From positions 180,001-212,000 of the forward strand of contig CAWJMG010000001.1 of the NCBI GenBank assembly GCA_963843975.1: a DNA stretch of 32,000 nt. Reading direction: 5' to 3'. The translations under genes were made by a program, and so were the position numbers. Shown here in pieces: positions 2,049 to 28,435 of this stretch (its first letter is position 1; each line of letters begins with the position of its first letter). Below the pieces are notes generated by a model. That model was given only the letters and a program-made list of their open reading frames with translations, searched no databases and was not told the DNA's origin. This DNA comes from an uncultured Actinomycetes bacterium (GTDB lineage: Bacteria > Actinomycetota > Actinomycetes > S36-B12 > CAIYMF01).

Positions 2049-2065
2049 CACCCCCACCGGGTGGA

Positions 2066-3846: not shown

Positions 3847-4093
3847 GCGCCCATCCTCCCCGTGGGGCGACCGACGCCCTACCCCCTACACGTGAGCGGA
3901 GCGTCGAAACGCTGCACGACGCCGCACGCCGCTTCGACGTCGACCCGTGACGTGCGTCTCGCCCCGTGTCCTGCCACCGGACGACGGCCTGCGGCGTACC
4001 GCGGAGTCAGGTGTGCTGGTCGTACCACGTGAGAGCCGCCGCCGCCGTCGCGCTCAACGCGTCCATCCCTCGCACCCTCGCCCCGGGAGACCC

Positions 4094-8619: not shown

Positions 8620-10295
8620 GCCGGCGCTCCGACCCGGTCGCGCAGGTCGACGTCCACCCGGTCCGGGTAGGAGTCACCGGCCGGCCCGAGGGTGAGGAGC
8701 ACGGGTCCGAGCAGCGCGACCTGGACGAGTGCGAGCGCGATGCCGGGCCACACCAGCCACGGGTTCCCACCGCTCAGGAAGAGCCGGACCAGACCTGCCC
8801 ACAGCAGCGCCTGGGACACGACCAGCCAGGTGCGGGCGACGAGCGCGACCCGCTGCGGGATCCCGGCCTTCTTGGGGCCGGCCGCAGCACCAGTAGGCAC
8901 CCAGCTCGCCACCTGGTTCCGCATCGCGTCGGTCACGGCGAGCAGGTGGCAGAAGCTGTTGATCATCGTCACGCGGTAGATGCCCGGGTCCCAGCCACGC
9001 GCGACGAGCGGGAAGATGAACAGCGTCGAGATGATGGACGGGATCATGAGCAGGTAGTTCGAGGGCACGATCGTGTCGGCGAAGAACCACACCATGATCA
9101 ACGTGGGCAGCACCGAGATGAGCGGCATGGCCGCTGATCCCATGTAGTACAGGAACGCCGCCCAGAACGACGTGCGCTGCCGCTTGTCGAACGGCGCCTT
9201 CTGGAAGAACGCGCTCATCATGAGGAGCATCGAGCTGCGGCACCAGCGGTACTGCTGATTCGTGAGCGCGTTCCAGCTGTCGGGTGCGAGCCCCTTGGCA
9301 AGCACGATCGGGACGTAGCGGGTGCGGTAGTTCGCGACCCAGAGCTTGACGCCCGAGTGGACGTCCTCGCCGATCGGCACCTGGGCGAACCCGCCGGCGG
9401 CCGTCACTGCCTGCCGCCGGTAGACGACGTTCGTGCCGGCGCAGATGGCGGCCTCGCAGGTGTCGCGGGCGGGCTGGATCCAGCGGAAGAACAGCTCCTG
9501 CAGGGCTCCGGCGTAGCGGGCGAAGTACGTGACGCGCCGGTCCACGTCGAAGTACTGCGCCGTCTGCACCACGCCCGTGGCCGGATCGGCCATGTACGGC
9601 ACCGTCTCCCAGAGGAAGTCCGGCCGCGGGGCGAAGTCGGCGTCGAACACGGCGATGAAGTCGCCGTCGGTGCGGTTGAAGGCGGCGATGAGGTTGCCGG
9701 CCTTCTTCCACTCGCCGCGGTTGGCGCGCACGACGTAGTCGAAGCCGAACTCCTCCGCGAGCCGCTGCGTCGGCTGGTCCGCGGCGTCGTCCAGGACATG
9801 GATGCGGACCTCGCCGTCCCACTCGAGGGCCCGGACGTGCTCGAAGGTGTTGGCGAGGACGACAGGGTGCTCGCCGCACACGGGCAGGAAGACGTCGATG
9901 CTGGGAGCGTCGCCGTCGAGGGCGGCGCGCCAGGTCTCGACGCCGACGACGTGGGCCTCGAGGGTGAGCCTGCGCCGCTTGAGGCGGAGCCACAGGTTCA
10001 CCACCATCGGCGGCACCATCACCGTCAGCAGGATGAGCCCGAGCGCCGTGTCCGGCGTGTGCAGCATGACGAGGATGAACGCGTAGACGAGGCACGCCTG
10101 CGAGAAGAAGAGCCACACGAACGGCCAACGGCGCTGCACGCCGAAGTAGCTGTACTTCTCCTGGTCGCTCGGCGCCGACGGCAGGTGGAACGTGGGGGCG
10201 ATAGCCGCCTCGTCCATCGGGACGGGTGCCGGTGCGTCGCGTGCGATGTGCCTCCTGGTGGTCCCGGCGCGGACATCGGTGTCGAACGTGGTCAT
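8616..10295 (-). CDS. Processive family-2 glycosyltransferase, cellulose-synthase-like (GT2-B)
   Basis: Inside ORF 8616..10478. I prefer ATG at 10295 (MTTFDTD...) because GAGGA lies 5 nt upstream; ATG at 10301 is also possible. Motifs seen: VLDDAAD, KKAGNL, FDADF (DxD), GEDVHSG (G/TED), QQYRW (QxxRW). Its stop overlaps the AT3 start (ATGA). Confidence 0.85.
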   Translation of the reverse strand: MTTFDTDVRAGTTRRHIARDAPAPVPMDEAAIAPTFHLPSAPSDQEKYSYFGVQRRWPFVWLFFSQACLVYAFILVMLHTPDTALGLILLTVMVPPMVVNLWLRLKRRRLTLEAHVVGVETWRAALDGDAPSIDVFLPVCGEHPVVLANTFEHVRALEWDGEVRIHVLDDAADQPTQRLAEEFGFDYVVRANRGEWKKAGNLIAAFNRTDGDFIAVFDADFAPRPDFLWETVPYMADPATGVVQTAQYFDVDRRVTYFARYAGALQELFFRWIQPARDTCEAAICAGTNVVYRRQAVTAAGGFAQVPIGEDVHSGVKLWVANYRTRYVPIVLAKGLAPDSWNALTNQQYRWCRSSMLLMMSAFFQKAPFDKRQRTSFWAAFLYYMGSAAMPLISVLPTLIMVWFFADTIVPSNYLLMIPSIISTLFIFPLVARGWDPGIYRVTMINSFCHLLAVTDAMRNQVASWVPTGAAAGPKKAGIPQRVALVARTWLVVSQALLWAGLVRLFLSGGNPWLVWPGIALALVQVALLGPVLLTLGPAGDSYPDRVDVDLRDRVGAPA

Positions 10296-10643
10296 GCGCA
10301 TCCTCGTGGGTCGTGGTGGCTGGCCAGGGCACGCGCGCACGTGCAGCGCGGCGTACGGCGGCATGGCGAGGCCCACCAGCACGCGCCGACGGCCGGTCGG
10401 AGGCGCACGGTGAAAGAGCCTGGTGTGCGGTGAGGTCGGGCGACTCGATGGTCGCGTCGAGGCGATGGCCGTCTGCAATGACGACCCGGACTCGGTCAGC
10501 CCCTGGGCGGGACCGTTCCCCCGACCGAGGCGGACGGGGATCGGCCGGGACCCTCACCCCGGCCGTCGTGCTGACTTCTCGAGACTACGTGTCCCGCTCA
10601 CGGGCAGCGCAAACCTGCCGTCCGGCTTACGGTCGGCCGTTGT

Positions 10644-10666
10644 GACGTGACCGACAGGGTCACGTC
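10644..10666 (-). terminator. Perfect 9-bp inverted repeat (GACGTGACC-N5-GGTCACGTC), 7 nt after the CocE/NonD stop codon; either a hairpin terminator or an operator
   Basis: Read directly: gacgtgacc gacag ggtcacgtc. No U-tract follows on the minus-strand RNA, so it may instead be a protein-binding palindrome upstream of the GT2 operon. Confidence 0.35.
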
Positions 10667-10673
10667 GACGGCG

Positions 10674-12638
10674 TCAGGCGAGGTCGCGGGGGAACTGGCG
10701 CTCCCAGCGTCTCTCGGCCACCACGCGGTCGCCCTCGCTGCACGTCATCGCGATGCGCACGTCGTACGTCCGCTCGCCGGCGTGCACCTCGAGCACCGAG
10801 CGCGTCGTCACGGTGACGGGGTTGCCGCTGCCGTCGTCGGCGAACGACAGGCGGAAGCTCACGTCGGACGCCGCGGTCTGCTCGAACGTCCGCGACGACA
10901 CCGACACTCGGCCGCCGTAGTGCTCGACCACCGCGCCATAGGGCGCGTCGTACGCCGAGCCGTGGTCGATCACGCACGTCGTGCGCCGCGCGAGCACGTC
11001 GCGCTCGACCCGCCACACCACGCCGTGGTCCGACTCGCTCGAGACGTCGTCGCCGGGCGAGAACGCAGGCGGCGGAGGCGATCCCGCCGGGTCGTACGCC
11101 GGCAGCACCAGCGTGCCGCCGTGCACGGTGAGCATCACCGGCAGCGGCGGCGCGGCCGTGTTGGGCCAGTCCGCACCGGCGAACGCGAGCCGTAGCACGT
11201 GACCAGGCAGCCAGCGGTAGGCCGCCGCCTCGATCTCGACCTCCACGTCGTACGCCGTCCCCGGCACGAGCGGCTCGACCGCCGCCATGCCGCCGCGGCG
11301 CGTCAGGTTGAGCACGCCGCGCGACACGAGAACCGACGTGCCGTCGGGTGAGACGTCCTGCAGCTTCACCGACACCGTCGCCACCGGCTGGTCGGACGAT
11401 ACCGACAGCACCACGCGCGCGTTGCCCGCGATCTCGAGCGGGCCGTCGGTGCCGAGGGCCGACGGGTCGACGTCCCACGTGAGCGAGTCGGCGTCGTCGT
11501 GCCGCTGGTCGAGCGACTGCCCGTACGGCAGGTGCCCGGCGCACGAGATCCAGGCCGCAGTGCCGACGTCGGGCTTCACCGCGTACGCCGCCCGCGCGTC
11601 GAGCGGCACCTCGAGCACCGACGAGCGCGGCGACGGCCACGAGTCGGCCCGCCACTCCCCCGCCACGACGTCGAGGTCGGGCTCGGGCGCGGTGAACTCG
11701 CGGACGTACCAGACCGCCTCGGGCTGGGCGTCGATCCCGTTGTCGACGCCGCGCAGCCAGCGGTCCCACCACGTCACCATCTCGGGCACGAGGTCGATGC
11801 GCGGCCCGGGCAGCGCCGACGACGTGGCCGCGTGCGACCACGGCCCCGCGAGAAGCCGTCGCGGGACGCCGTTCTCGCCGAGGCGCTCCATCGTGCGGAA
11901 CGTGTTGTTGCGGTAGCCGTCGGCCCAGCCCGCGACGATCATCGTCGGGATCTCGATCCGGTCGTACGCCGGACGCACCGAGCCGTGCCGCCAGTACGCG
12001 TTGTCGCGCTGGTTCTCGAACCACGTCATGATCCAGGGCTCGTGCTCGGCGATCCTCGCCTTCCACTCCTCGCGCCACGTCGCCCCGAACACCGCGGGCA
12101 CCGGCGGCAGCGCGTTCATCGGCGTCATGTAGTGGCAGTAGTCGACGAGGTCGATCCACCGTCGCAGGCCGCCCATGTAGTGCACGTCGTCGGTGTGCCG
12201 GTCGTCGGTGGCGTAGATCGCGATGACGGCCTTGAGATGCGCGGGCCGCTCGCACGCCATCTGCAGCGAGTTGAACCCGCTGTACGACGTGCCGTACATG
12301 CCGACGTTGCCGTCGCACCACTCCTGGGCTGCGAGCCAGGCGATCACCTCGGCCAGGTCGAGCTGCTCGGCTGCCGGGTACTCGTCCGTCGCACGCCCGC
12401 CGCTGCTGCCCGTGCCGCGCACGTCGAGACGCGCGACGGCGTACGCGTGCTCGTCCCGCAGCCGCACATACTCCGGCCGGTACGACGACGTCATGTCGTC
12501 CTTGCGGTAGGGCAGCGCCTCGAGGATGCAGGGCTGCGGCCCGTGCGCGGCGTTGGGGACGTACAGCGTCACGGACAGGAACACGCCGTCGCGCATGGGG
12601 ATCCAGGCGTCGACCTTGGTGCCCTCGAGGGCGTTCAT
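10674..12638 (-). CDS. CocE/NonD-family hydrolase (S15 X-Pro dipeptidyl-peptidase-like alpha/beta hydrolase)
   Basis: Inside the merged ORF 10674..13460. ATG at 12638 (MNALEGTKVDAWIPMRDGVFLSVTLYVP...). Family hallmarks: ILEALPYRKDD, RLDVRGTGSSGG, nucleophile elbow GTSYSG, later GPWSH. 654 aa. Its start overlaps the stop of the upstream gene (ATGA). Confidence 0.9.
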   Translation of the reverse strand: MNALEGTKVDAWIPMRDGVFLSVTLYVPNAAHGPQPCILEALPYRKDDMTSSYRPEYVRLRDEHAYAVARLDVRGTGSSGGRATDEYPAAEQLDLAEVIAWLAAQEWCDGNVGMYGTSYSGFNSLQMACERPAHLKAVIAIYATDDRHTDDVHYMGGLRRWIDLVDYCHYMTPMNALPPVPAVFGATWREEWKARIAEHEPWIMTWFENQRDNAYWRHGSVRPAYDRIEIPTMIVAGWADGYRNNTFRTMERLGENGVPRRLLAGPWSHAATSSALPGPRIDLVPEMVTWWDRWLRGVDNGIDAQPEAVWYVREFTAPEPDLDVVAGEWRADSWPSPRSSVLEVPLDARAAYAVKPDVGTAAWISCAGHLPYGQSLDQRHDDADSLTWDVDPSALGTDGPLEIAGNARVVLSVSSDQPVATVSVKLQDVSPDGTSVLVSRGVLNLTRRGGMAAVEPLVPGTAYDVEVEIEAAAYRWLPGHVLRLAFAGADWPNTAAPPLPVMLTVHGGTLVLPAYDPAGSPPPPAFSPGDDVSSESDHGVVWRVERDVLARRTTCVIDHGSAYDAPYGAVVEHYGGRVSVSSRTFEQTAASDVSFRLSFADDGSGNPVTVTTRSVLEVHAGERTYDVRIAMTCSEGDRVVAERRWERQFPRDLA

Positions 12639-13723
12639 GCGCGCGGCCCCGCGTAGTGGCGGTCGAGCAGCTCGGCCACCGCGTCGCGCGGCAGCGCCGG
12701 GATCGTCTTGCCGCCGACGCCGGTCACGTCGTGCGCGTTGAGCAGGCAGCTGATGACCGCCTCCTCCGACGCGTCGACGACCGCCTCGAAGTACGGGTCG
12801 AGCTCGCGGCCGGTGAGCGGTGCCTTCGCCGACGCCGTGCCGCGGGGTGCCCGCAGCCCGGTGGCCGCGGCCATGAAGATCTCGCCGCTCCCGTGGTGCG
12901 CGGTCGACCCGGTGCGCGCGAGGCCGAGGCCGATGCGGGTCGCGAGCCGCTCGCACCCGCGGTGGTCGATCGGTGCGTCGGTGACGACGACGCCGAGGCA
13001 CGAGCCCGCGGGCGGCGGCGGCACGTGGTCGGGGCGGCCGAGCAGCTGCCCGACCGGCACGCCGGCGATCGTGAGCCGGTCCCACTGGCCGAAGTTGCAC
13101 AGCAGCACGACGCCGACAACGTGGCCGTCGGGGAGCACGCGCGACGACGTGCCGATGCCGCCCTTCCACTGGTAGCAGGACATCCCGGTGCCAGCGCCGA
13201 CCGCGCCCTGGTCGGGCGTCGCGCCCGACCCGACGGAGGCCCGAGCCGCGGCGAGCGCCTCGCGCACGTGCTCGTGCGTCACGTGCATGTACCTCGCGTC
13301 GTTGAGCCACGAGTCGTCGCACTCGCCCACCACGGGGATCAGGAAGTCGTCGACGCCGATCCGCGGCTGCTCCTCGATGAGCAGGCGGCAGGCGGAGTCG
13401 TACACGCGCCCGACCTGCATCGTGGAGGTGAGGAACACCGGCGTCTCGGCCACACCCCACTCGTCCATCTGCGAGCGCGAGGTCAGCTCGCCGGCGCCGT
13501 TGAGCAGCGCGACGCCCGCCGGCACCGGCTCGAGGAACGGGTCGCCGCCGAGGTCGACGACCGTCACGCCCGTCCGCGCGAGCCCACGGCCCTCCGGCGG
13601 GTTGGGCTCGTCGTACACCACCGTCGCGTGGCCGAGACCCGCCCCCGGGACGTCGATCACCGAGTTCGTCGCGCCGCGCGGCAGCGTCCCGATCCTGACT
13701 CCGAGGTCAGCAAGCGTCGTCAT
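12635..13723 (-). CDS. P1/DmpA-family (S58) aminopeptidase-like Ntn hydrolase
   Basis: Inside ORF 12635..13993. ATG at 13723 (MTTLADLGVRIGTLPRGATNSVIDVPG...). DmpA-like blocks: NAITDVPG-like N-terminus, GAGTGMSCYQWKGGIGTSS, GVVVTDAP, ARTGSTAHHGSGE. 362 aa. Confidence 0.85.
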   Translation of the reverse strand: MTTLADLGVRIGTLPRGATNSVIDVPGAGLGHATVVYDEPNPPEGRGLARTGVTVVDLGGDPFLEPVPAGVALLNGAGELTSRSQMDEWGVAETPVFLTSTMQVGRVYDSACRLLIEEQPRIGVDDFLIPVVGECDDSWLNDARYMHVTHEHVREALAAARASVGSGATPDQGAVGAGTGMSCYQWKGGIGTSSRVLPDGHVVGVVLLCNFGQWDRLTIAGVPVGQLLGRPDHVPPPPAGSCLGVVVTDAPIDHRGCERLATRIGLGLARTGSTAHHGSGEIFMAAATGLRAPRGTASAKAPLTGRELDPYFEAVVDASEEAVISCLLNAHDVTGVGGKTIPALPRDAVAELLDRHYAGPRA

Positions 13724-13760
13724 GCGCCGATCCTGCCCGACCCCCGGCCCCGGCGCTGGC

Positions 13761-14834
13761 ATGCTCGCCCACATGAGCGCTCTCGTCGTGCGATCGGCCG
13801 ACTGCCTGCTGCACGTGCCGTCGGCGGAGATCTGGGTCGGCGTGCGCACGCCGGGCACCGAGCTGCCCGAACGGGCCACCCGGATCGAGGCCGAGCTGCG
13901 CGCGCGCGGGCACGAGGTGCGTGACGCCGAGGCGCACGACGACGACGTGCTGATACGCGTCCACGACCCGCGCCTCGTCGAGCACCTGCGCACCGTCTAC
14001 GACCGCTGGGTGGAGGCCGGCTTCCCCGACGAGCCGGGCCAGGACCGGGTGGTCCCGTACCTGATGCCGACGGCGGGGATGCTCGACGGCCTCCCCGAGC
14101 GCGAGCCCGCGGCGGTGCACGCCGCCGCCGGCCGCTGGTGCTACGACACGATGACGCTCGTCGGCCCAGGCACGTGGACTGCGGCCCGCGCTGCCGTCGA
14201 CGTCACCCTCACCGCGGTCGACGCCGTCGCCGCGGGAGCACCGCTCGCCTACGCCCTCGTGCGCCCGCCCGGCCACCACGTCACGCGGTCGGCGTACGGC
14301 GGCTCCTGCTATCTCAACAATGCGGGCATCGCGGCGCAGGCCCTGCGCGACGCGGGGCACGAGCGCGTAGCGGTGGTCGATCTCGACGCTCACCACGGCA
14401 ACGGCACGCAGGCTCTCTTCTACGACCGTGCCGACGTGCTCTACGCGTCGCTTCACGTCGACCCGGGGGCTGGCTGGTTCCCGCACTACGCCGGGTTCGC
14501 CGACGAGACCGGCCGCGGCCGGGGCGCCGACGCGAACCTCAACGTCCCGCTCGCACCCGGCACCGGCGACGCCGCCTGGCTCGACGCGGTCGGACGCCTC
14601 GCGGAGAAGGTCGAGGCGTCAGGAGCGACGGCGCTCGTCGTCAGCCTCGGCGTCGACTCGGCTGCAGCCGACCCCGAGTCGCCGCTGGACGTCAGCGTCG
14701 AGGTGCACCATGCCGCGGGCCGACGGCTCGCCGCGCTCGGGCTGCCGGTCGTCGCGGTGCAGGAGGGCGGCTACGACCTCGGCACGATCGGTCTGCTGGT
14801 CGCCGAGACCCTGGCGGGCCTCGACGGGCGCTGA
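13761..14834 (+). CDS. Histone-deacetylase-family Zn-dependent deacetylase/amidohydrolase (AcuC/APAH-like)
   Basis: Inside ORF 13188..14834; the upstream part is antisense to the DmpA gene. Start is ATG 13761 or ATG 13773. Motifs seen: VRPPGHH, DLDAHHGNGTQ, SLGVD, QEGGY. Confidence 0.9.
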   Translation: MLAHMSALVVRSADCLLHVPSAEIWVGVRTPGTELPERATRIEAELRARGHEVRDAEAHDDDVLIRVHDPRLVEHLRTVYDRWVEAGFPDEPGQDRVVPYLMPTAGMLDGLPEREPAAVHAAAGRWCYDTMTLVGPGTWTAARAAVDVTLTAVDAVAAGAPLAYALVRPPGHHVTRSAYGGSCYLNNAGIAAQALRDAGHERVAVVDLDAHHGNGTQALFYDRADVLYASLHVDPGAGWFPHYAGFADETGRGRGADANLNVPLAPGTGDAAWLDAVGRLAEKVEASGATALVVSLGVDSAAADPESPLDVSVEVHHAAGRRLAALGLPVVAVQEGGYDLGTIGLLVAETLAGLDGR

Positions 14835-14859
14835 CCCGCGAATACGGCATCCTGACTGC

Positions 14860-15474
14860 ATGACCGAGGGCCAGATCAGCGTCGACCCGCTGGGTGAGCC
14901 GGATCCGGAGCGCCCGGACATCTACATGCGCGTCACCCTCAAGAGCGGGCTGCACCTCGTGATCCGGCCGCTGAACCCCGAGGACCGCGCGGCCCTCGCC
15001 GACGGGTTCGTCGGTCTCTCCGACCGCAGCAAGTACCTGCGCTTCCTCACCGGCAAAGGCGTGCTGTCCTCGCGCGGCCTCGACAAGCTGGTCGACCAGG
15101 TCGACCAGCACGACCACGTCGCGCTCGCTCTCTGGTGGACGCGGCACACGCAGGCAGACGTGCTCCTCGGCGACGCCCGCTTCATCCGCCTCCCGGCCGA
15201 CCCGGAGTGCGCCGACGTCGCCGTCACCATCGCCGACGACATCCAGGGCGAGGGCGCCGGCACCCTCATGATGCTCGCGCTCGCGCGGCGCGCCCACGAC
15301 GAGGGCATCCGCCGATTCTCCGCCGTCATCTCGCCCGAGAACGAGGCGTCCCACCGCATGATGCTGGCAGCCGGCACGGTGATCCGGGACGAGTACTCCG
15401 ACGGACTCCGCGAGGTCGAGGTCGAGCTCGGCGAGCCGGTGCAGATCCCCGACGGCGTACCGCCCCGCTACTAG
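14860..15474 (+). CDS. GNAT-family N-acetyltransferase, Pat-type (protein-lysine acetyltransferase-like) domain
   Basis: Inside ORF 14428..15474; ATG at 14860. IRPLNPEDRAALADGFVGLSDRSKYLRFL resembles the S-x-x-S-R-Y-L-R-F-F block of Pat-like GNATs. Acetyl-CoA loop-like DIQGEGAGTLM. The last 8 codons lie in the left direct repeat of the insertion. Confidence 0.85.
   Translation: MTEGQISVDPLGEPDPERPDIYMRVTLKSGLHLVIRPLNPEDRAALADGFVGLSDRSKYLRFLTGKGVLSSRGLDKLVDQVDQHDHVALALWWTRHTQADVLLGDARFIRLPADPECADVAVTIADDIQGEGAGTLMMLALARRAHDEGIRRFSAVISPENEASHRMMLAAGTVIRDEYSDGLREVEVELGEPVQIPDGVPPRY
15448..15472. repeat. Left copy of the 25-bp direct repeat (cccgacggcgtaccgccccgctact)
   Basis: Read directly; 23/25 identical to 17392..17416. 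It encodes the GNAT C-terminus (P)DGVPPRY. Confidence 0.85.
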
Positions 15475-17354
15475 TCCCCCAAAGCCTTGCCGAGCGTCAC
15501 GCGAAGAGCATCAGCCCCACCAGGGGACACAGCCTCGACGATCCAATCCACGTGAAGTGATTTCGCGTCCAGCATGGAGTTCAACGCGACCAAGTCGTCC
15601 AGACGGAGTGGCTCATAGCACGACAACAGAGCTATCGCTTCGGCCCGAAACTCGTCTGAATCAGAGTCGTCGCGAAGCGTGCGCAGCGAATCTAGAGCGC
15701 CGCCATCTGGCCCAGACTCCTTCAAGGTGAGTGCCGCTTGCATCAGTCGATGTAGGTCACTCGGCGAGGTCTTGCTGATGCGGCTGAGGTGACGGCGCGC
15801 CCCATCAAGCTTCTGTTGCGCGATCAGCGAGGCGACAAGCGCTGCTCGAAGTGGCGGGTCATTCTGCTGACGCTTGAGCGCGCGCTGCGCGTAGTAGGCC
15901 GCCGCGTGAAACTCGGCAAGGTGACACTTTAGGAGAGCGACAAGCCGCAGCAGAGAATGCCGATGCGGATCAAGCAAGACGGCCCGCTCGGCGATAGCTC
16001 CGGCCGTCTGCAAGTCCCCGAGGTATTCTGCGTAGGCGTGTGCGGCCATTCGCAAGACTTCGACATCAGGTCCTTGCGAGCCAACGAGGTCATCGAGGGT
16101 GGCCCATCCGTCGGCCGCCGTCGGATCTGTCGACAGCCTCGATAGCGCTCTTCGCGCCGCCGCGATCTGGTTGGTCCCATCCACGCAGGCGATGTCATGC
16201 CAGCCAATCGCTTCCGCATGGCGGCCCATCGCGTCAAGAAAAGTGGCGTAGCCCGAGGCAGCGACGGAGGCTGCGAACGTGCCGGGTTCGTTCGCAGCAG
16301 TCGAATACAGACTCTCCGCCTCTTCGATCGAACCGTGCCCTCGGAGGAGGAGATCAGCCAACGTCACCTGAGCGTGTGCATTCTTCGGGTCAACCTCCAG
16401 CGCTCGACGAAGCACCTCAACCGCACCTACCTCGTCTTTGTCGGCGAGGAAGGCGCCGAAGTTTGCCAGCAGAGCACTGTCGTTCGGTCGAAGGCGAACC
16501 TGGGCTTTGTAATCCTTGACCGTCCCAGGCAGCGAACTGAAGCCGGAACCGATGAGCTGTGGCCTCTTCGGCCGCCCCTCTGCGTCCATGGCTGGCTTGA
16601 GCCGAATGCCCATTGCCTCAAGTTGGGCAAGGAAGTCCGGCGGCTGGTAGGCGGCGTCGTGTTCGCCTTCTAGGTAGGCCTTCGAGCTTCCGTGTCCGGT
16701 CGCGCGCACCGACCCGACGGAACAACCTCGGCTTACCGTCGGTGTCCGTTCGCTCACCGAGGCATTGACCTCGGCCAAGCGTTCGAACACTTCGTCGTCA
16801 GATGGTCCGGTTCTGAGCAAGCGCTGGAGGGACTCGATCTCTTCGGCCGTTAGGGCGTTCCGCGCGCCGGTAGCGACGAGTGTGCCTGACTTTGGCCTAA
16901 CGCTAGTGACAGTGAAGTGCGTGTCGGCGACGTCCCGCGCTACGACCCGGCCGTCCACAAACGACTCGAAGTTCGATACGAGCGAAACGACGATCTGCGT
17001 ACCGGCTACTGATCCGACGACGAAGGAATGCCGCCGCTGCACTGGGTCAGAAACGCGGGAAAGGGCAGCATCTGCTCGGGATTGCAGCAAACTCAGCAAC
17101 GCCCCCAACGACGTCACCGCGTTCGCCTCGACAACGACACCAGCCAGCCAATCGCCGATGGCTCGGCCGTCTAGAACCCCTAGACCCGTAACCCCAATCC
17201 GGGCGTGCACAGACAGGGTCTGGACGGTGGCGAGCTTGTACGCATCCTGCATTGGCGCACCAGAGCCGTATGCCGAGAGCCTGAAGTCGCAAGACATGAA
17301 CATCGAGTTCTCGTCGGCAAGGACCATCACCAGGGTCACGCCCACAGTCTCCAT
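15471..17354 (-). CDS. Fusion protein: N-terminal proteasome-beta/HslV-like (Ntn-hydrolase-fold) domain plus C-terminal TPR-repeat array; function unknown
   Basis: 627-aa ORF filling the insertion. The N-terminal ~230 aa align by eye to the Thr1/Asp17/Lys33 proteasome pattern (T7, D23, K40). Residues ~290-620 have TPR-like periodicity (e.g. ALLANFGAFLADKDEVGAVEVLRRALEVDPKNAHAQVTLADLLL). No Walker A motif. Alternative in-frame GTG starts occur at 17345 and 17339; the latter would give Met-Thr-Leu-Val. Confidence 0.8.
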   Translation of the reverse strand: METVGVTLVMVLADENSMFMSCDFRLSAYGSGAPMQDAYKLATVQTLSVHARIGVTGLGVLDGRAIGDWLAGVVVEANAVTSLGALLSLLQSRADAALSRVSDPVQRRHSFVVGSVAGTQIVVSLVSNFESFVDGRVVARDVADTHFTVTSVRPKSGTLVATGARNALTAEEIESLQRLLRTGPSDDEVFERLAEVNASVSERTPTVSRGCSVGSVRATGHGSSKAYLEGEHDAAYQPPDFLAQLEAMGIRLKPAMDAEGRPKRPQLIGSGFSSLPGTVKDYKAQVRLRPNDSALLANFGAFLADKDEVGAVEVLRRALEVDPKNAHAQVTLADLLLRGHGSIEEAESLYSTAANEPGTFAASVAASGYATFLDAMGRHAEAIGWHDIACVDGTNQIAAARRALSRLSTDPTAADGWATLDDLVGSQGPDVEVLRMAAHAYAEYLGDLQTAGAIAERAVLLDPHRHSLLRLVALLKCHLAEFHAAAYYAQRALKRQQNDPPLRAALVASLIAQQKLDGARRHLSRISKTSPSDLHRLMQAALTLKESGPDGGALDSLRTLRDDSDSDEFRAEAIALLSCYEPLRLDDLVALNSMLDAKSLHVDWIVEAVSPGGADALRVTLGKALGD

Positions 17355-17391
17355 GCAACCCGACGCCAGGGTAGAACTTGAGCGAAACCGT

Positions 17392-17416
17392 CCCGTCGGC
17401 GTACCGCCTCGCTACT
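17392..17416. repeat. Right copy of the 25-bp direct repeat (cccgtcggcgtaccgcctcgctact)
   Basis: Read directly. In the GNAT-equivalent frame it reads (P)VGVPPRY followed by TGA at 17416-17418. This is why the antisense ORF 16765..17418 ends in GVPPRY, like the GNAT. Confidence 0.85.
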
Positions 17417-17494
17417 GACCTCCCGCACCTCGACCTGGCGGGGCTCCATACTTCCTGCCGGGACGACCGCGCGGGCGGTCGCGAGGAGGACCGC

Positions 17495-18331
17495 ATGAGC
17501 ACGCAGCCCGAGGCCGCCACCACCGAGGTCGCCGCAGCGCCCGAGCCGATGATCGACAACATCGGCTACGAGGTCTTCATCGCCGCCCTGTCGATCCTGT
17601 CGATCGTCAACCTCGTGCTCATCTTCTTCGTCCGCGACGATTCGCTCGACATCGTGCTGCAGGCGATGAACCTGATCCTGTCGCTCGTCCTGTTCTTCGA
17701 CTTCCTCTACCGGATGCGCAAGGCGCCGTCGAAGTCGACGTACTTCTTCCGGGAGTACGGCTGGGCGGACCTCGGCGCCTCGCTGCCGCTCCCCCAGCTG
17801 AAGGTGCTGCGCATCTTCCGGCTCATCAAGGTCTGGCGGCTCTTCCGCCTGTACGGCGCGAAGCGGCTCCTCACGGCGCTCGTCAAGGACCGCGCGGAGA
17901 CCGCCCTCTACCTGCTGCTGCTCATCGCCGTCCTGGTGCTGGAGTTCGGCAGCCTTTCGATGCTGCGGCTGGAGCAGAGCGTCGAGGGTGCCAACATCAC
18001 GACCGCCTCCGACGCGATCTGGTACGTCCTCGTCACCATCTCCACCGTCGGCTACGGCGACCAGTTCCCCGTGACGAACGCCGGCCGCGTCCTGGGCACG
18101 GCGATCATCGTGCTCGGCGTCGGCATCTTCGGCACGCTCACCGGCTTCCTGGCCAACGCGTTCATCGCCCCGCGCCGGACCGAGGACGAGATCGCTGCCG
18201 ACGAGGCCGCGGAGGAGGCCGAGGTCGAGCGCGAGGTCGACATCGCCACGAAGGTCGACGACCTGCACCGCATGCTCGCGGAGCAGCAGCAGACCATCGC
18301 GCGCCTGGAGACGCTTCTCAGCCAGCGCTGA
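17495..18331 (+). CDS. Voltage-gated (6-TM, KvAP-like) potassium channel
   Basis: Inside ORF 17378..18331; ATG at 17495 preceded by GAGGAGGA. S4-like segment LRIFRLIKVWRLFRLYGAKRL has basic residues at every third position. Selectivity filter TVGYGD. The C-terminal tail is acidic and coiled-coil-like. Confidence 0.9.
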   Translation: MSTQPEAATTEVAAAPEPMIDNIGYEVFIAALSILSIVNLVLIFFVRDDSLDIVLQAMNLILSLVLFFDFLYRMRKAPSKSTYFFREYGWADLGASLPLPQLKVLRIFRLIKVWRLFRLYGAKRLLTALVKDRAETALYLLLLIAVLVLEFGSLSMLRLEQSVEGANITTASDAIWYVLVTISTVGYGDQFPVTNAGRVLGTAIIVLGVGIFGTLTGFLANAFIAPRRTEDEIAADEAAEEAEVEREVDIATKVDDLHRMLAEQQQTIARLETLLSQR

Positions 18332-18350
18332 CCGGACATCGCTCAGGGTC

Positions 18351-18366
18351 GATCCGGGGCCGGATC
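18351..18366 (+). terminator. Short GC hairpin (gatccg-gggc-cggatc), 20 nt after the channel stop codon
   Basis: Palindrome read directly. The stem is short and there is no T-tract. Confidence 0.2.
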
Positions 18367-18426
18367 AGGGGTGCGCCACAGTCATAACGGGTGGTCGCAG
18401 CGGCCGGGACGCGGCAAGGTGGAGGT

Positions 18427-19377
18427 ATGACGCAGACCAGCACCAGCGGCACACCCGCGGGCACGGTCGTCGGAGCGCCCATCGAGGTCACGAACCTCAC
18501 GAAGCACTTCGGCGGCGTGCACGCCGTCCAGGACCTCTCCTTCACCGTCGCCCCCGGCCGGGTCACCGGCTTCCTCGGGCCCAACGGCGCGGGCAAGACC
18601 ACCACCCTGCGATGCCTGCTCGGCCTCGTCGAGCCGACGTCGGGCAGCGCGACGATCGGAGGCAAGCGCTACCACGACCTGCACGCGCCGATGCGCGTCG
18701 TCGGGTCGGCGCTCGAGGCGACCGGCTTCCACCCCGGCCGCACCGCCACCAACCACCTGCGCGTGCTCGCCCGCTCGGGCGGCCTGGACGAGGCCCGCGT
18801 GCCCGTCGTCCTGGAGTCCGTGGGCCTGGCAGACGCCGCCGGACGTGCCGTCGGAGGCTTCAGCCTCGGCATGCGCCAGCGGCTGCAGCTCGCAGCAGCG
18901 CTGCTCGGCGACCCGGGCGTGCTCGTCCTCGACGAGCCGGCGAACGGCCTCGACCCCGAGGGCATCGCCTGGCTGCGGTCGTTCCTGCGCTACCTGGCGA
19001 GCCAGGGCCGCACCGTGATCGTGTCGAGCCACGTGCTGTCGGAGGTCGAACAGACCGTCGACGACGTCGTGATCATCGCCAACGGCCGCCTCGTGCGCGC
19101 CTGCCCGCTCACCGAGCTCACCACCGGACGCGCGCACGTCGTCGTCCGCACCCCGAGCTCCGACCAGCTCCTTGCGGCAATCGCGTCCGCAGCACCTCAA
19201 GCCACGGTGCACCGCACCGACGAGGAACTGCGCGTCGAGGGCCTCGAGTCGGCCGACGTCGGCCGCATCGCCTTCGGCGCCGGCGTCGAGCTGCACGAGC
19301 TGCGACCCGGTGCCGACGACCTCGAGCAGGTCTTCCTCGCGCTCACCAGCGCCCCCACGGACGGAGCCACCTCATGA
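18427..19377 (+). CDS. ABC transporter ATP-binding protein (ABC-2/DrrA-like)
   Basis: Walker A GPNGAGKTT, signature FSLGMRQRL, Walker B VLVLDEPANGLD, H-loop SSH. The start is either ATG 18427 (AAGGTGGAGG just upstream) or GTG 18391. Confidence 0.9.
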   Translation: MTQTSTSGTPAGTVVGAPIEVTNLTKHFGGVHAVQDLSFTVAPGRVTGFLGPNGAGKTTTLRCLLGLVEPTSGSATIGGKRYHDLHAPMRVVGSALEATGFHPGRTATNHLRVLARSGGLDEARVPVVLESVGLADAAGRAVGGFSLGMRQRLQLAAALLGDPGVLVLDEPANGLDPEGIAWLRSFLRYLASQGRTVIVSSHVLSEVEQTVDDVVIIANGRLVRACPLTELTTGRAHVVVRTPSSDQLLAAIASAAPQATVHRTDEELRVEGLESADVGRIAFGAGVELHELRPGADDLEQVFLALTSAPTDGATS

Positions 19378-20171
19378 GCGCCACGCTCACTGCACCGACC
19401 CAGGCGTCGACCCACCGCCAGCGCCTCGTCTCGGCGGAGATCCTCAAGGTCACGAGCACCAAGATGTGGCTCGCGATGCTCATCGGCGTCGTGCTCTACA
19501 TCGGCATCGGGGTGGTCGCCAGCATCTTCGCCCCGGCCCAGCCCGGCCAGGACGCCACGACCCTGCAGACGGCCGCGGGCATGCGCAACCTGTTCGCGCA
19601 GGCAGGAGGCGCGTACGTCTTCGCGATCGTGCTCGGTGCCCTCGGCATGACCCAGGAGCTGCGGCACCAGACGCTCACCTCGACGTTCCTCGCCGAGCCG
19701 CGCCGCAACAAGGTGATGGTCGCGAAGATGGCGGCGTACGGCGTGATCGGCGCGATCTACGGCGCCGTCGGTGTCGTCTTCGGCTACGCGCTCGCGTTCG
19801 CGCTGCTGCCGCTCAAGGACCATGCCGACGTCCCCACCGACGCGCTCTGGCAGATCGCGGGCGGCGCCATCCTCGGATGCGCGCTCTTCGCCGTCGTCGG
19901 CGTCGCACTAGGCACGTTGATCCGCAACCAGATCGCCGCGATCCTCGGCATCCTCGTGTGGGTGCTGCTCATCGAGCAGCTCGTCGTGGTGTTCCTCCCG
20001 GCCGTCGGCAAGTGGCTCCCCGGCGGCGCGCTGTTCGGCGTCCTGCAGACCACCGGCTTCAACGGCACCGAGTACCTCCCCGTGTGGGCGGCGTCCCTGG
20101 TGCTCATCGCGTACGCCGTGGTCTTCGGCGCCATCGCTGCGGCTACGACGCAGCGCCGCGACGTCACCTGA
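19374..20171 (+). CDS. ABC-2 type transporter permease
   Basis: Inside the merged ORF 18612..20171. ATG at 19374 overlaps the ATPase stop codon (ATGA). 265 aa with about 6 hydrophobic segments. Confidence 0.85.
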   Translation: MSATLTAPTQASTHRQRLVSAEILKVTSTKMWLAMLIGVVLYIGIGVVASIFAPAQPGQDATTLQTAAGMRNLFAQAGGAYVFAIVLGALGMTQELRHQTLTSTFLAEPRRNKVMVAKMAAYGVIGAIYGAVGVVFGYALAFALLPLKDHADVPTDALWQIAGGAILGCALFAVVGVALGTLIRNQIAAILGILVWVLLIEQLVVVFLPAVGKWLPGGALFGVLQTTGFNGTEYLPVWAASLVLIAYAVVFGAIAAATTQRRDVT

Positions 20172-20177
20172 CGGCGG

Positions 20178-20936
20178 TCACCACGGGACGACCTCCCGGT
20201 CCTCCCACAGCACGCCGGTCTCGGTCCCGTCGGTCAGGGGGCGCGCCGCGAGCCACACGGCCGTGGCGGCCCCCTGCTCCGCGCTGCGGGGCGCGTCCTG
20301 GCCGCCCATGTCGGTGCGGCAGTGCGCAGGGCACATGGCGTCGACGAGCACGCCGCGGCGTCCAGCGCCGAGCTCGACTGCGAGGTTCTTGGTGTAGCCG
20401 TTCACGGCGGCCTTGCTGACGCGGTACGCCGCGAGCCCTCCGGACGTGCCCGGCCCGGACATCCGGCCGAGGCACGCGCTGACCGTCACGATGCGGCCGT
20501 CGCGCCGCGCGGCCATCCCGGGCGCGAAGGCCTGCACCACGTGGTGGACGCCGTCGAGGTTCACGCCCATCACCCGCCGCCACTCGTCCGGCGTCGTCCG
20601 CAGGGTCTTCGCGGTTCGCTCGCTCATCACCCCGGCCGCCAGCACGAGGACGTCGACATCAGCCAGCGGGCCGAGCGAGTCGTGCAGCGCGGCCACCGCG
20701 CCTGGATCGGCGACGTCGCACCCGCGCCCGACGGCGTCGAGGCCTTGCGCCACGAGGGCCGCGGCGGCGGCCTCGGCGCGGCCGGCGTCCTGGCCGACCA
20801 GCACCACCGTGGCGCCGAGCCGGGCCATCCCGTGGGCCGCCGCGAGGCCGATGCCTCGCGAGCCGCCGGTCACCAGCGCCACCCGTCCCTCCAGAGCGGC
20901 CGGGGCGACGTCGTCGAGCACGCGGTCGGGATCCAT
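20178..20936 (-). CDS. Short-chain dehydrogenase/reductase (SDR)
   Basis: ORF 20178..20972; probable ATG at 20936 (MDPDRVL...). Cofactor motif TGGSRGIG and catalytic YRVSK (YxxxK). Confidence 0.85.
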   Translation of the reverse strand: MDPDRVLDDVAPAALEGRVALVTGGSRGIGLAAAHGMARLGATVVLVGQDAGRAEAAAAALVAQGLDAVGRGCDVADPGAVAALHDSLGPLADVDVLVLAAGVMSERTAKTLRTTPDEWRRVMGVNLDGVHHVVQAFAPGMAARRDGRIVTVSACLGRMSGPGTSGGLAAYRVSKAAVNGYTKNLAVELGAGRRGVLVDAMCPAHCRTDMGGQDAPRSAEQGAATAVWLAARPLTDGTETGVLWEDREVVPW

Positions 20937-21096
20937 GCACACCACTCTGAGGTCGACGGACAGCGACCGCACCCCGACCGAGAGGCGGCCGAGAGGGTGC
21001 GGTGCCGCTCGGCGCGGGACACGTGCCGTACGCCGGAACCCGCGTGGTCCGCGCGGGGACCCGGGAGCGGAACCGCGTAGGCTGACCTTCGATCAC

Positions 21097-21125
21097 GACC
21101 CGGGGGCCAACAGGTGGCCCGGGTC
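21097..21125 (+). promoter_or_regulatory. Strong GC hairpin in the kgd 5' leader (gacccgggggcca-acagg-tggcccgggtc, with a 2-nt bulge)
   Basis: Read directly. It lies 24 nt upstream of the kgd start. A TAnnnT-type -10 candidate, TAGGCT, sits at 21078-21083. Confidence 0.3.
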
Positions 21126-21148
21126 CTACCAAGAGTCTTCTACGAGGG

Positions 21149-24100
21149 ATGTCGATGTCGACGTCGGAACCGTCGGACCAGAGCGCCCGGCTCGCTGCAT
21201 TCGGTCCGAACGAGTGGCTGGTTGACGAGATCTACCAGCAGTACCTGACCGATCCGAAGAGCGTCGACCCCGCCTGGTGGGACTTCTTCGCCGACTACGT
21301 CCCCACCGAGCACGCCGGTGCCGACCTCGTCGCCGCGTCGGCCGCCGTCCGCGCGGCCGCCAGGGCCTCCGCCGAGGCAGCAGAGGTCGCCCTCGACGTC
21401 GAGGTCGCCGCGCACGAGGCCCCGCAGCCGATGAAGCCCGAGGCCGAGGTCGCGCCCAAGCCCACGCCTCCGGCCGCTCCGGTCGCCACGCCCGTGCCGG
21501 CCGCCACCCCGGTCGCCGTCGAGAGCGTCGAGCCGACCGTGCTCAAGGGCCCGGCAGCGCGCGTCGTCACCAACATGGAGTCGAGCCTCACGGTCCCGAC
21601 CGCCACGAGCGTGCGCGCGATCCCGGTGAAGCTCCTCGTCGACAACCGCATCGTGATCAACAACCACCTCGCCCGCGGGCGCGGCGGCAAGGTCTCGTTC
21701 ACGCACCTCATCGGCTGGGCCGTCGTCCAGGGCCTCAAGGCCATGCCCGAGATGAACTACGGCTTCACCGAGGTCGACGGCAAGCCGGCCGTGGTCAAGC
21801 ACCACCAGGTCAACCTCGGCCTCGCGATCGACCTCACCAAGCCCGACGGCACCCGCCAGCTGCTGGTCCCCAGCATCAAGGGCGCCGACGAGATGGACTT
21901 CGCGACCTTCTGGTCGAGCTACGAGGAGATGGTCCGCAAGGCCCGCGGCAACAAGCTCGTCGTCGACGACTTCGTCGGCACGACCGCCAGCCTCACCAAC
22001 CCGGGCGGCATCGGCACCGTGCACTCGGTGCCGCGCCTCATGCAGGGCCAGGGCGTCATCATCGGCGTCGGCGCGATGGACTACCCCGCCGAGTGGCAGG
22101 GCGCGGCGATCGAGACGATCGCCCGTCACGCCATCAGCAAGGTCACCACGCTGACCTCGACGTACGACCACCGCATCATCCAGGGCGCGCAGTCGGGCGA
22201 GTTCCTCCGCTACATCCACGGTCTGCTGCTCGGCGACGACAACTTCTACGACGACATCTTCCGCGCGCTGCACATCCCCTACGAGCCGATCCGCTGGGCC
22301 GCCGACATCGCGACCGCCCACGACGACGACCTCGACAAGACCTCGCGCGTGCACGAGCTCATCCACGCGTTCCGCGTGCGCGGCCACCTCATGGCCGACA
22401 CCGACCCGCTCGAGTACAAGCAGCGCCACCACTCCGACCTCGACGTCGCGAGCCACGGCCTCACTCTGTGGGACCTCGACCGGGAGTTCGCCACGGGCGG
22501 CTTCGGCGGCAAGCCGTTCAAGAAGCTGCGCGACATCCTCGGCGTCCTTCGCGACGCCTACTGCCGCACCATCGGCATCGAGTACATGCACATGCAGGAC
22601 CCGGAGCAGCGCTCCTGGATCCAGCAGCGCGTGGAGCGCCGCTACGACAAGCCCGAGCGCGACGAGCAGCTGCGCATCCTGCGCAAGCTCAACGCGGCCG
22701 AGGCGTTCGAGACGTTCCTGCAGACCAAGTACGTCGGCCAGAAGCGGTTCTCGCTCGAGGGCGCCGAGTCGGTCATCCCGCTCATGGACGCCGTCATCAC
22801 CGCTGCGGCCGAGGCCGGGCTCGACGAGGCCTGCGTCGGCATGCCGCACCGCGGCCGCCTCAACGTGCTCGCCAACATCGCGGGCAAGTCGTACGACCAG
22901 ATCTTCCGCGAGTTCGAGGGCGACTTCGAGGTCGAGGGCTCGGTGCAGGGCTCCGGCGACGTGAAGTACCACCTCGGCACGAGCGGCACCTTCACGACCG
23001 AGTCGGGCGCGACCATCCCGGTCTACCTCGCGGCCAACCCGTCGCACCTCGAGGCCGTGAACCCCGTGCTCGAGGGCATCGTCCGCGCCAAGCAGGACGT
23101 GCTCCCCCGCGGCAAGATCTTCTCGGTGCTGCCCGTGCTGCTGCACGGCGACGCCGCATTCGCCGGCCAGGGCGTGGTGACCGAGACCCTCAACCTCTCG
23201 CAGCTGCGTGGCTACCGCACCGGCGGCACGATCCACATCGTCGTCAACAACCAGGTCGGCTTCACGACCGCGCCGGAGTCGTCGCGCTCGTCGGTCTACT
23301 CGACCGACGTCGCCCGCATGGTGCAGGCGCCGATCTTCCACGTGAACGGCGACGACCCCGAGGCCGTCGTCCGCGTGGCCCGCCTGGCGTTCGAGTTCCG
23401 CCAGCGGTTCAACAAGGACGTCGTCATCGACATGGTCTGCTACCGCCGTCGCGGCCACAACGAGGCCGACGACCCGTCGCTCACGCAGCCGTTGATGTAC
23501 AACCTGATCGACGCCAAGCGCTCCACGCGCAAGCTCTACACGGAGGCGCTCATCGGCCGCGGCGACATCTCGGTCGAAGAGGCCGAGCAGGCGCTGCGCG
23601 ACTACCAGGAGCAGCTCGAGCGCGTCTTCACCGAGACCCGCGACGCCCTGGCGCACCCGACCGAGAAGCACCACCCGGTGCCGCCGCCGTTCCCGGCCGT
23701 CGTCACCACGGCGATCAGCGACGACACCGTCAAGCGGATCGTCGACAGCCAGCTGAACATGCCCGAGGGCTTCACCGTCCACCCGCGTCTCGCGCCGCAG
23801 CTGCAGCGCCGGGCGCAGATGGTGCAGGACGCGACGATCGACTGGGCGATGGGCGAGACGCTCGCGTTCGGGTCGCTCCTGCTCGAGGGGCGCACCGTGC
23901 GCCTCGCCGGCCAGGACTCCCGCCGCGGCACGTTCGGCCAGCGCCACGCCGTCATCGTCGACCGCGTCACCGGCGCCGAGCACACGCCGCTCGCGAAGCT
24001 CAGCGACGACCAGGGCTTCTACTTCGTCTACGACTCGCTGCTGTCGGAGTACGCCGCGATGGGCTTCGAGTACGGCTACTCGGTGGCCCGCCCCGAGGCC

Positions 24101-28265: not shown

Positions 28266-28400
28266 GGCCACGAACCTCACGCTAGGCGAGCGCTGCGTCG
28301 GGTGTCGCGACGGCATCCGCCAGGCGAGTCGCATCGCCGAGCTGACGGCTGCGTTTGCCTGCGACTGAACACTTCTCGGCGATTCGTCATGTGGAAACCT

Positions 28401-28429
28401 TTGCACGTTTCGAACATGTGTTCTATTCT
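28401..28429 (+). promoter_or_regulatory. Near-consensus sigma-70-type promoter (TTGCAC-17 nt-TATTCT) for the HNH/DUF222 gene; spacing predicts a leaderless mRNA
   Basis: Read directly: -35 at 28401-28406 and -10 at 28424-28429. The ATG at 28436 begins 7 nt after the -10 hexamer, and there is no SD sequence. Confidence 0.55.
28410..28425. promoter_or_regulatory. LexA SOS box (Cheo-box type): TCGAACATGTGTTCTA
   Basis: Matches GAAC-N4-GTTC and 14/16 positions of the mycobacterial consensus TCGAAC-N4-GTTCGA. It sits in the promoter spacer and overlaps the -10 by 2 nt. Confidence 0.7.
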
Positions 28430-28435
28430 TGCCCC

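Follow-up and report, generated by a model that had tools for sequence, protein, structure and literature searches.

Proteases of the proteasome type are, as a rule, core enzymes that form rings, degrade proteins and rely on separate unfoldases. Beyond these, Fuchs, Alva and Lupas (PMC8665760) in 2021 catalogued 22 uncharacterised subfamilies of proteasome homologues, all of which keep T1, D17, K33 and G47. Most of the subfamilies are without propeptides, none has a known function, and some, including PPH and AAH, are borne by phages; members of very low similarity were admitted on structural grounds. One subfamily, DAH ('Distant Actinobacterial proteasome Homolog'; representative WP_085249540.1), is recorded from phages as well as from Actinobacteria, Proteobacteria and Cyanobacteria, and carries an extra C-terminal domain that, like those of RPC and DGH, matches no known structure. 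Connectase, an archaeal protein ligase, is a monomeric relative of proteasome subunits that has an additional C-terminal domain and is highly specific for its substrates (PMC7980362; PMC8665760). Here we report a gene in a 32,000-nucleotide stretch of DNA from an uncultured Actinomycetes bacterium (assembly GCA_963843975.1, contig CAWJMG010000001.1, positions 180,001 to 212,000; 'the window' denotes this whole stretch), whose product joins an N-terminal domain that is very probably of the proteasome-type N-terminal nucleophile (Ntn) kind to a long array of tetratricopeptide repeats (TPRs).

The original prediction, made from the letters of the window, had proposed that this protein is a proteasome-beta/HslV-like hydrolase fused to TPRs and had known of no described equivalent. 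The latter claim was too strong in view of the 22 catalogued subfamilies, none of which is described with TPRs. The text of PMC8665760 nowhere mentions TPRs, the word tetratricopeptide or fusions, and in our literature searches neither a proteasome-like protein fused to TPRs nor a defence effector of this type was found to be described. A proteasome or Ntn effector is likewise not mentioned in the survey of conflict systems by Kaur et al. (2020).

Predicted fold and conserved residues

The relation of the N-terminal domain to proteasomes is supported at the level of predicted structure. An AlphaFold2 model of residues 1-265, computed from a 103-sequence alignment, has a predicted local distance difference test score (pLDDT) of 95.2 and a predicted template modelling score (pTM) of 0.92. 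Its elements run in the order four strands, two helices, six strands, two helices, two strands and one helix, and the model matches the four-layer alpha-beta-beta-alpha order S1-S4, H1-H2, S5-S8, H3-H4, S9-S10. When compared with the PDB by Foldseek, it gave 668 matches at E<=1e-3, and the 50 that were listed are all proteasome subunits (mostly beta) or Anbu. The best PDB match has an E-value of 7.4e-8 and a probability of 1.0, with a template modelling (TM) score of ~0.5 on the query and ~0.6 on the target. The proteasome-like fold that had been proposed from the sequence is therefore borne out by the model and by its matches to proteasome beta subunits and Anbu.

Residues are numbered here from the GTG codon at 17339, such that T2, D18 and K35 correspond to the T7, D23 and K40 that the original prediction had named as the putative catalytic Thr, Asp and Lys. 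A word-indexed homologue search returned one match and later eight, and an exhaustive HMMER scan of 1.84 billion representatives was needed to reveal the family, which comprises 292 homologues at E<=1e-3, 91 of these at 1e-10. Across 150 representatives, position 2 is Thr in 93% and Ser in 6%, D18 and G52 are each present in 100%, and K35 is present in 99%; further family alignments give a like pattern, with D18, K35 and G52 invariant or nearly so. All four residues lie at strand boundaries in the model (Table 1). In the same 150 representatives, L3, W64, S122, N123, G158, L171, N192, S203, C206 and G215 are each conserved in more than 90%. Thus, the proposed Thr, Asp and Lys are conserved throughout the family, which is the part of that assignment that stood; the residue-by-residue alignment to HslV on which it had been based has no statistical support at sequence level, as described below.

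Several of the strongly conserved positions are not classical proteasome residues. These include S122-N123, at the start of an extra hairpin, and N192 in helix H4. An S-x-G-C motif (residues 203-206) that precedes strand S9 and contains a near-invariant Cys is also not a classical proteasome hallmark.

Start codon and N-terminal residue

The open reading frame (ORF) at the locus, 15471..17354 on the minus strand, encodes 627 amino acids, and all of the peptides quoted in the original prediction are present in its translation. Here the minus strand reads ATG GAG ACT GTG GGC GTG ACC CTG, in which the GTG at 17339-17337 is followed by a Thr codon. The database copy of the window protein (P0002, 622 aa) begins at this GTG, and the nearest homologue (P0001) begins MTLVQVV, which corresponds to the same position. 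Moreover, residue 7 of the 627-aa version pairs with residue 2 in most family matches. Start at the GTG, which lies 9 nt after a GGAG and gives Met-Thr, had been foreseen and agrees with the local sequence, with both database starts and with the homologue N-termini; the five upstream codons are, judging from the Met-Thr starts of the family, probably not translated. A scan for promoters and terminators detected nothing.

Met-Thr is a family rule. In 103 of the 120 members whose N-terminus is intact, the second residue is Thr or Ser, and almost all of the remainder have M, V or L directly before this residue, which points to over-extended gene calls such as the one that begins at the window ATG. 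Thr is a permitted penultimate residue for methionine aminopeptidase. A strict rule of start codon followed by Thr is what would be required of an N-terminal nucleophile exposed by this enzyme, and removal of the initiator Met would be allowed because Thr is small. Methionine aminopeptidase may therefore leave Thr as residue 1 with no need for a propeptide, as in most bacterial proteasome homologues. The predicted catalytic apparatus would then consist of Thr1, Asp17, Lys34 and Gly51 in mature numbering, and we consider it likely that the domain is catalytically competent.

The TPR half

The original prediction had described the remaining ~350 amino acids as TPR-like, and this is confirmed. 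In Pfam, TPR_19 (46.5 bits), TPR_14 (36.1) and TPR_17 (25.4) all exceed their gathering cut-offs (25, 23.5 and 24.4, respectively), and the TPR matches from Pfam, NCBIfam and PDB sequence searches together span from about residue 275 to 580. The full-length model (pLDDT 91.4, pTM 0.83) has ~20 helices over residues 274-621. Its fold matches are TPR superhelices only, namely consensus TPRs (CTPR), OGT, SPINDLY and LbcA. The pTM of 0.83 suggests a defined orientation between the catalytic and TPR halves in the predicted structure.

The fusion is the standard architecture of the family. TPR families were found in 49 of the 103 members scanned and in all nine individually scanned members of at least 400 aa, and the 377-aa P0072 is the sole individually scanned member without a TPR match. 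In 88% of 653 pairs, conservation is higher in the catalytic half (mean identity 36%) than in the TPR half (26%). The TPR half is still alignable, which argues that the fusion is old and stable.

Searches with sequence profiles

No match to residues 1-265 was obtained in Pfam, NCBIfam, PHROGs, PADLOC or PDB sequence profiles. An assignment to PF00227 had been suggested as a check, and no match to this or any other Pfam family was obtained for the N-terminal domain at E<=10. PDB sequence searches, whether by phmmer or with the family profile, returned TPR or chance matches only, none of them significant for this domain. We also aligned the family profile by hhalign with the T. acidophilum beta subunit and E. 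coli HslV, both validated against PDB entries, and with the A. fulgidus beta subunit from the same output; the probability was 0.1%, which is not significant. The best path pairs D18 with E17 and K35 with K33, and we give this zero weight as evidence. Homology to proteasomes consequently rests on structure, because a sequence-level alignment to HslV is without statistical support. Identity as HslV is also not indicated, given that no AAA+ gene flanks the ORF and no sequence match to HslV chains was obtained.

Scans of the protein against Pfam, PADLOC and NCBIfam matched no P-loop or nuclease family, in keeping with the earlier statement that neither motif is present. In PADLOC-DB 2.0, the window protein has only a weak match, to PDC-M71B (E 0.015), and a homologue (P0153) matches PDC-M71B (E 3.8e-4) and PrimPol (E 1.2e-3); all of these fall in the TPR region. 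Nothing was found in PADLOC-DB 2.0 for the N-terminal domain, for the phage protein gp30 introduced below or for other members. NCBIfam gave weak, sub-threshold matches to the TPR proteins PilW and PrsT, far below the curated cut-offs. Family members are annotated in their sources as 'Tfp pilus assembly protein PilF', 'TadD' or 'TPR repeat protein', names that derive from the TPR half only, and no curated library recognises this family of ~290 clusters.

Site and boundaries of the insertion

The gene had been predicted to be cargo on a mobile insertion, and the orthologous sites of two relatives confirm this. These relatives, Longivirga aurantiaca (L004) and a Nanopelagicales metagenome-assembled genome (L005), were found by using the flanking acetyltransferase as a query, for which they show 96% and 94% protein identity, respectively; elsewhere a tighter sub-alignment was used, as the full family alignment is too divergent. 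By blastn, window positions 10669-15472 align with L004 1805-6613, and positions 17392-23402 align with L004 6589-12612, both at ~90% identity. The two L004 ranges overlap by exactly 25 bp, and thus the site is empty in L004 and L005, whereas the window has 1,919 extra bp plus a duplication (Table 1).

Table 1. Coordinates of the gene, its encoded domains, the insertion and the phage homologue. Positions refer to the window except in the last row.
Feature	Coordinates	Strand	Basis or remark
Coding sequence, GTG start to TAG stop, 622 aa, proteasome-beta-like domain plus TPR array	15471..17339	-	ORF list; homologue N-termini; database copy P0002
Codon Thr2, putative N-terminal nucleophile (proteasome Thr1)	17334..17336	-	Conservation; directly before strand S1 in model
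Codon Asp18 (proteasome Asp/Glu17)	17286..17288	-	Invariant; last residue of strand S2 (E12-18)
Codon Lys35 (proteasome Lys33, one residue later)	17235..17237	-	99% to invariant; directly before strand S3 (E36-40)
Codon Gly52 (oxyanion-hole Gly47)	17184..17186	-	Invariant; directly after strand S4 (E45-51)
Residues 1-222, core alpha-beta-beta-alpha Ntn/proteasome-beta-like fold, extra beta-hairpin 125-134	16674..17339	-	AlphaFold model; Foldseek vs PDB
Residues 223-273, conserved C-terminal extension of catalytic domain plus linker	16521..16673	-	Family alignment; pLDDT 85-94
Residues 274-621, ~20 helices as ~10 TPR-like pairs, superhelix	15477..16520	-	Pfam; PDB TPR matches; full-length model
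GGAG Shine-Dalgarno-like motif, 9 nt upstream of GTG 17339-17337	17349..17352	-	Direct sequence reading
Five in-frame upstream codons ATG GAG ACT GTG GGC, holding the ribosome-binding site	17340..17354	-	Family starts Met-Thr at GTG
Inserted segment, 1,919 bp, absent from orthologous site in two relatives	15473..17391	.	blastn; junction alignment; GC dip; third-position GC
Left copy of 25-bp direct repeat, CCCGACGGCGTACCGCCCCGCTACT	15448..15472	.	Identical to empty-site sequence; encodes last residues of acetyltransferase
Right copy of direct repeat, 2 substitutions, then original TGA stop of acetyltransferase	17392..17416	.	Repeat and junction alignment
Host acetyltransferase-like gene, 204 aa	14860..15474	+	Orthologues 96% (L004) and 94% (L005) identical
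Host ion-transport (channel) gene, divergent from inserted gene	17495..18331	+	Pfam Ion_trans, Ion_trans_2
Gordonia phage Nymphadora gene 30 (KU963255; L014), annotated hypothetical	27667-28536	reverse	Leftward-transcribed block between tail genes and integrase

The insert holds the target gene alone, with no recombinase and no terminal inverted repeats. The acetyltransferase stop codon (TAG, 15472-15474) overlaps that of the inserted gene (TAG, 15471-15473, minus strand) in the palindrome CTAG at 15471-15474, which places the insertion boundary precisely on the two stops and leaves the insert without any 3' untranslated DNA. Of the hallmarks of mobile elements, the insert shows the 25-bp direct duplication alone, and it does not qualify as an autonomous element. 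An integron cassette, an insertion sequence and a miniature inverted-repeat transposable element were each considered and ruled out, given that there is no attC, no terminal inverted repeat and no transposase; there is in fact no room for an attC because the stop codon abuts the repeat. The substitutions in the right repeat are at positions 5 and 18 of 25, and its last 7 nt are identical to those of the left copy. This pattern would fit decay of a copy that no longer codes for protein, and it would also fit site-specific crossover close to the right-hand end of the 25-bp core.

Base composition also sets the gene apart. The GC content of the window is ~72% and falls to ~62% over 15.5-17.5 kb, and the GC content at third codon positions (GC3) is 0.69 in the inserted gene, compared with 0.81-0.98 in neighbouring ORFs that pass the coding filter. 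The host-like composition that would mark an ordinary housekeeping gene is therefore not observed. A third, more distant relative (L006) has other genes at the same acetyltransferase/ion-channel junction, which indicates that this site is variable and suggests that the intergenic site is a recurrent landing spot. In that relative, the region that corresponds to window positions 15425-17553 (L006:6566-8412) holds two ORFs, one of 384 aa (minus strand) and one of 154 aa (plus strand), which by eye look like a phosphotransferase and MarR.

The catalytic domain ends in an extension (residues 223-273) that, by the family alignment and the model, holds a helix at 234-242 and the motif D-x-x-G-x-P-x-P-I-R-x-V-G-S. 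Elsewhere in the window, an 8.6-kb block (2050-10668) is missing from the orthologous regions of L004 and L005, such that L004 positions 1804 and 1805 are adjacent. It encodes an extracytoplasmic function (ECF) sigma factor, a GH16 hydrolase, two GT2 glycosyltransferases and an AT3-SGNH acyltransferase with host-like GC3 values of 0.90-0.93, and is probably a variable cell-surface polysaccharide locus.

Distribution and genomic context

The family is rare, sporadic in its distribution and linked to mobile elements. At 16 loci, the GC content of the family gene stays between 0.51 and 0.65 whatever that of the contig (0.47-0.73), and in 10 of the 16 it is at least 4.5 GC points under its surroundings; in L015 it is 0.21 under. 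Phage integrase (4) is the most frequent domain among 78 neighbouring proteins, which come from ~14 non-redundant loci, and further neighbours include a resolvase, two transposases, NotI, a type I restriction subunit, Cas1 and WYL. No recurring partner gene was found among these proteins. One locus is a prophage-like region around the family gene. This family-wide context, from the kind of neighbourhood survey that had been recommended, lends circumstantial support to the hypothesis of a defence role, although the window itself is not a defence island.

At two loci, the mobile context can be described further. A TrwC-type relaxase (1,254 aa) and a NERD-domain protein lie ~4 kb upstream of the family member in L015 (L015:480-5257), which indicates that this copy is carried on a conjugative or mobilisable element. 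In L012 (5716-6993), the family gene (P0169) is intact to about residue 175 and then continues as tyrosine-integrase sequence, with two more integrase genes and a TPR-bearing Ser/Thr kinase close by. We rejected a true fusion of the domain to an integrase in this case, as the family gene has been truncated at about residue 175 by an inserted element.

The best match in a viral structure library is a 289-aa protein of Gordonia phage Nymphadora (E 2.6e-13, TM 0.72, root-mean-square deviation 3.0), which is far closer than any proteasome match in the PDB. This protein, gp30, has an N-terminus that reads VTLVQTLLTPNHILQVSDRRLT and scores 65 bits over residues 1-228 against the family hidden Markov model (HMM). 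It keeps T2, D18, the Lys, the Gly and the S-N motif, and lacks S203 and C206 (VGQDA in place of VSxGC). It has no TPRs and is confined to a few near-identical temperate Gordonia CZ1 phages. A paper on defence by Gordonia phage CarolAnn often mentions Nymphadora, and does not mention gene 30 at all. A 'linear amide C-N hydrolase' appears among the low-ranking viral fold matches. The link to phages is real, yet it is narrow, because the tblastn and IMG/VR searches detailed below yielded no further members.

Proposed function and alternatives

Given these characteristics, we propose that the protein is a cytoplasmic, self-contained Thr Ntn hydrolase fused to a superhelix of ~10 TPRs. The TPR array, with its predicted fixed orientation on the catalytic domain, would bind an extended polypeptide, and may either select the substrate and feed it to the active site or detect a signal by which the protease is activated, for instance through assembly. 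The gene would be a horizontally moving accessory gene rather than a housekeeping one, with its likeliest use in conflicts with phages or other mobile elements. Overall, we judge it reasonably probable that the locus is a mobile accessory gene for a Thr protease that is guided by its TPRs. A role that is specifically immune is possible, and we hold it to be doubtful. A bolder version is that this is the first proteasome-family single-protein immune sensor-effector, in which the TPRs would recognise a phage or plasmid protein, the otherwise inactive Thr-protease domains would thereby be brought together as an active oligomer and infection would be aborted by proteolysis, while the TPR-less phage copies such as Nymphadora gp30 would serve as exclusion factors or decoys and the insertion flanked by 25-bp repeats would reflect transfer by an integrase acting in trans. 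This scenario we regard as unlikely.

A number of observations weigh against the proposal, and readers should keep these in mind. There is no sequence-level link to proteasomes in Pfam, in PDB profiles or by hhalign, PADLOC and PHROGs yield no assignment, and the catalytic equivalence derives from a predicted structure. In addition, isolated proteasome subunits are inactive outside the assembled ring (PMC8665760). The surroundings in the window are of a housekeeping kind with no defence island: in addition to the genes of the 8.6-kb block and the ion channel, they encode a major facilitator superfamily (MFS) transporter, 2-oxoglutarate dehydrogenase and an A-family DNA polymerase. Several other family loci also have unremarkable neighbours, and the neighbour counts given above are small and come without a formal background control. 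Finally, tblastn with the domain and the family consensus detected no family member in 50,697 phage genomes and 72,556 plasmids, nor did two scans of 2.9 million IMG/VR contigs.

Other explanations must be weighed on the same evidence. TPRs typically bind short extended peptides. This property, together with a large appended binding module, the lack of a neighbouring AAA+ unfoldase gene and the Connectase features noted at the outset, would suit a Connectase-like sequence-specific transpeptidase, ligase or processing enzyme, in which the TPRs bind a peptide motif and an amine resolves the Thr1 acyl-enzyme. However, the window model retains H1 and H2, which Connectase lacks, has no helical insertion between S3 and S4, and no conserved neighbouring substrate gene was found at the family loci examined, which makes this option improbable. 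Phages or other mobile elements may instead be the beneficiaries, through counter-defence, superinfection exclusion or host takeover, with the bacterial copies as remnants or domesticated cargo. A genuine member is indeed gene 30 of temperate Gordonia CZ1 phages, further copies reside in prophage-like or conjugative contexts, and the phage-borne homologues PPH and AAH have been reported (PMC8665760); yet the phage copies are without TPRs and restricted to one small phage group, the IMG/VR scans and other phage genomes searched gave no members, and the copy in the window stands by itself, without neighbouring phage genes. We treat this as a minor possibility.

The Ntn clan also includes acylases, amidases and phospholipase B (PMC8665760), and the protein could be an Ntn amidohydrolase that acts on a non-protein amide of the cell wall, a lipid or a small molecule, with TPRs that merely localise or scaffold it. 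The low-ranking 'linear amide C-N hydrolase' match and the family's own conserved S122-N123, N192 and C206, which are no proteasome hallmarks, are compatible with this. Against it, all of the strong fold matches are proteasome-type peptidases, the conserved Thr/Asp/Lys/Gly set is that of the proteasome branch, and access to the envelope is unlikely because there is no signal peptide and the N-terminus forms strand S1; we thus find a non-protein substrate quite improbable. Least credible, and in our view very improbable, is an ordinary PilF- or TadD-like TPR scaffold protein with a catalytically dead N-terminal domain. The source annotations and the sub-threshold PilW and PrsT matches hint at this, but the names derive from the TPR half alone and the matches are far below curated cut-offs. 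Furthermore, the N-terminal domain is the more conserved half, its invariant catalytic set and strict Met-Thr start would be needless in a dead domain, and no pilus genes are nearby in the window.

With a TPR-guided Thr protease as the favoured description, the locus is of interest because a proteasome-type domain is here hard-wired to a large peptide-recognition module and moves between genomes as a lone gene. If active, it would be a compact and possibly programmable Thr protease or ligase with specificity set by the TPR array, and it would be one of the largely function-less proteasome homologues for which a substrate could be sought through a built-in feature, the ligand of its TPRs. If it proves to be a defence or exclusion factor, the proteasome fold would join the caspase-like and trypsin-like immune protease effectors. 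The pair of empty and filled sites additionally represents a rare, precisely bounded acquisition of a single gene with no recombinase in the insert.

Comparison with known systems

With the 20S beta subunit, HslV, Anbu and BPH, the window protein shares the alpha-beta-beta-alpha fold and the order of its strands and helices, as well as the N-terminal Thr, an Asp that ends S2, a Lys that starts S3 and a Gly after S4. As in Anbu and BPH (PMC8665760), there is no propeptide. No sequence similarity to them was detectable by HMM or profile-profile comparison, and the window protein adds a hairpin that follows S6, a conserved C-terminal extension of 40 residues and, in cis, a TPR array of 350 residues. 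The gene likewise differs from those of proteasome-type proteases in that it has no AAA+ partner gene and is mobile and sporadic rather than core.

Among systems with TPRs, TPR-CHAT (Csx29) of the type III-E CRISPR 'Craspase' and the Avs/STAND TPR protease effectors have a TPR module fused to, or partnered with, an immune protease that is triggered by target recognition. These are caspase-like or trypsin-like proteases that need a CRISPR effector or a STAND NTPase, whereas the fold of the window protein is that of a proteasome, with neither an NTPase nor a partner gene. In OGT and SPINDLY, whose TPRs are among the top structural matches of the window TPR half, a TPR superhelix is joined to a catalytic domain, and LbcA is described in its entry as the TPR partner of the CtpA protease. 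The catalytic domains of OGT, SPINDLY and LbcA-CtpA are unrelated to that of the window protein, and the likeness is architectural only.

Like Connectase, the window protein may be a proteasome-like domain that works without ring or unfoldase, and both have an appended C-terminal part. H1 and H2 are missing from Connectase, in which a lid of two helices lies between S3 and S4 (PMC8665760), whereas the window model has H1 and H2 and no lid, and Connectase is restricted to methanogens. The C-terminal domain of DAH matches no known structure, whereas the TPRs of the window family match readily (the two were compared by description). Otherwise, DAH and the window family have in common a divergent prokaryotic proteasome-like domain and the T1/D17/K33/G47 set. 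The window family spans hosts of varied GC content and includes an actinophage copy, and the distribution of DAH could fit the N-terminal domain of the window protein.

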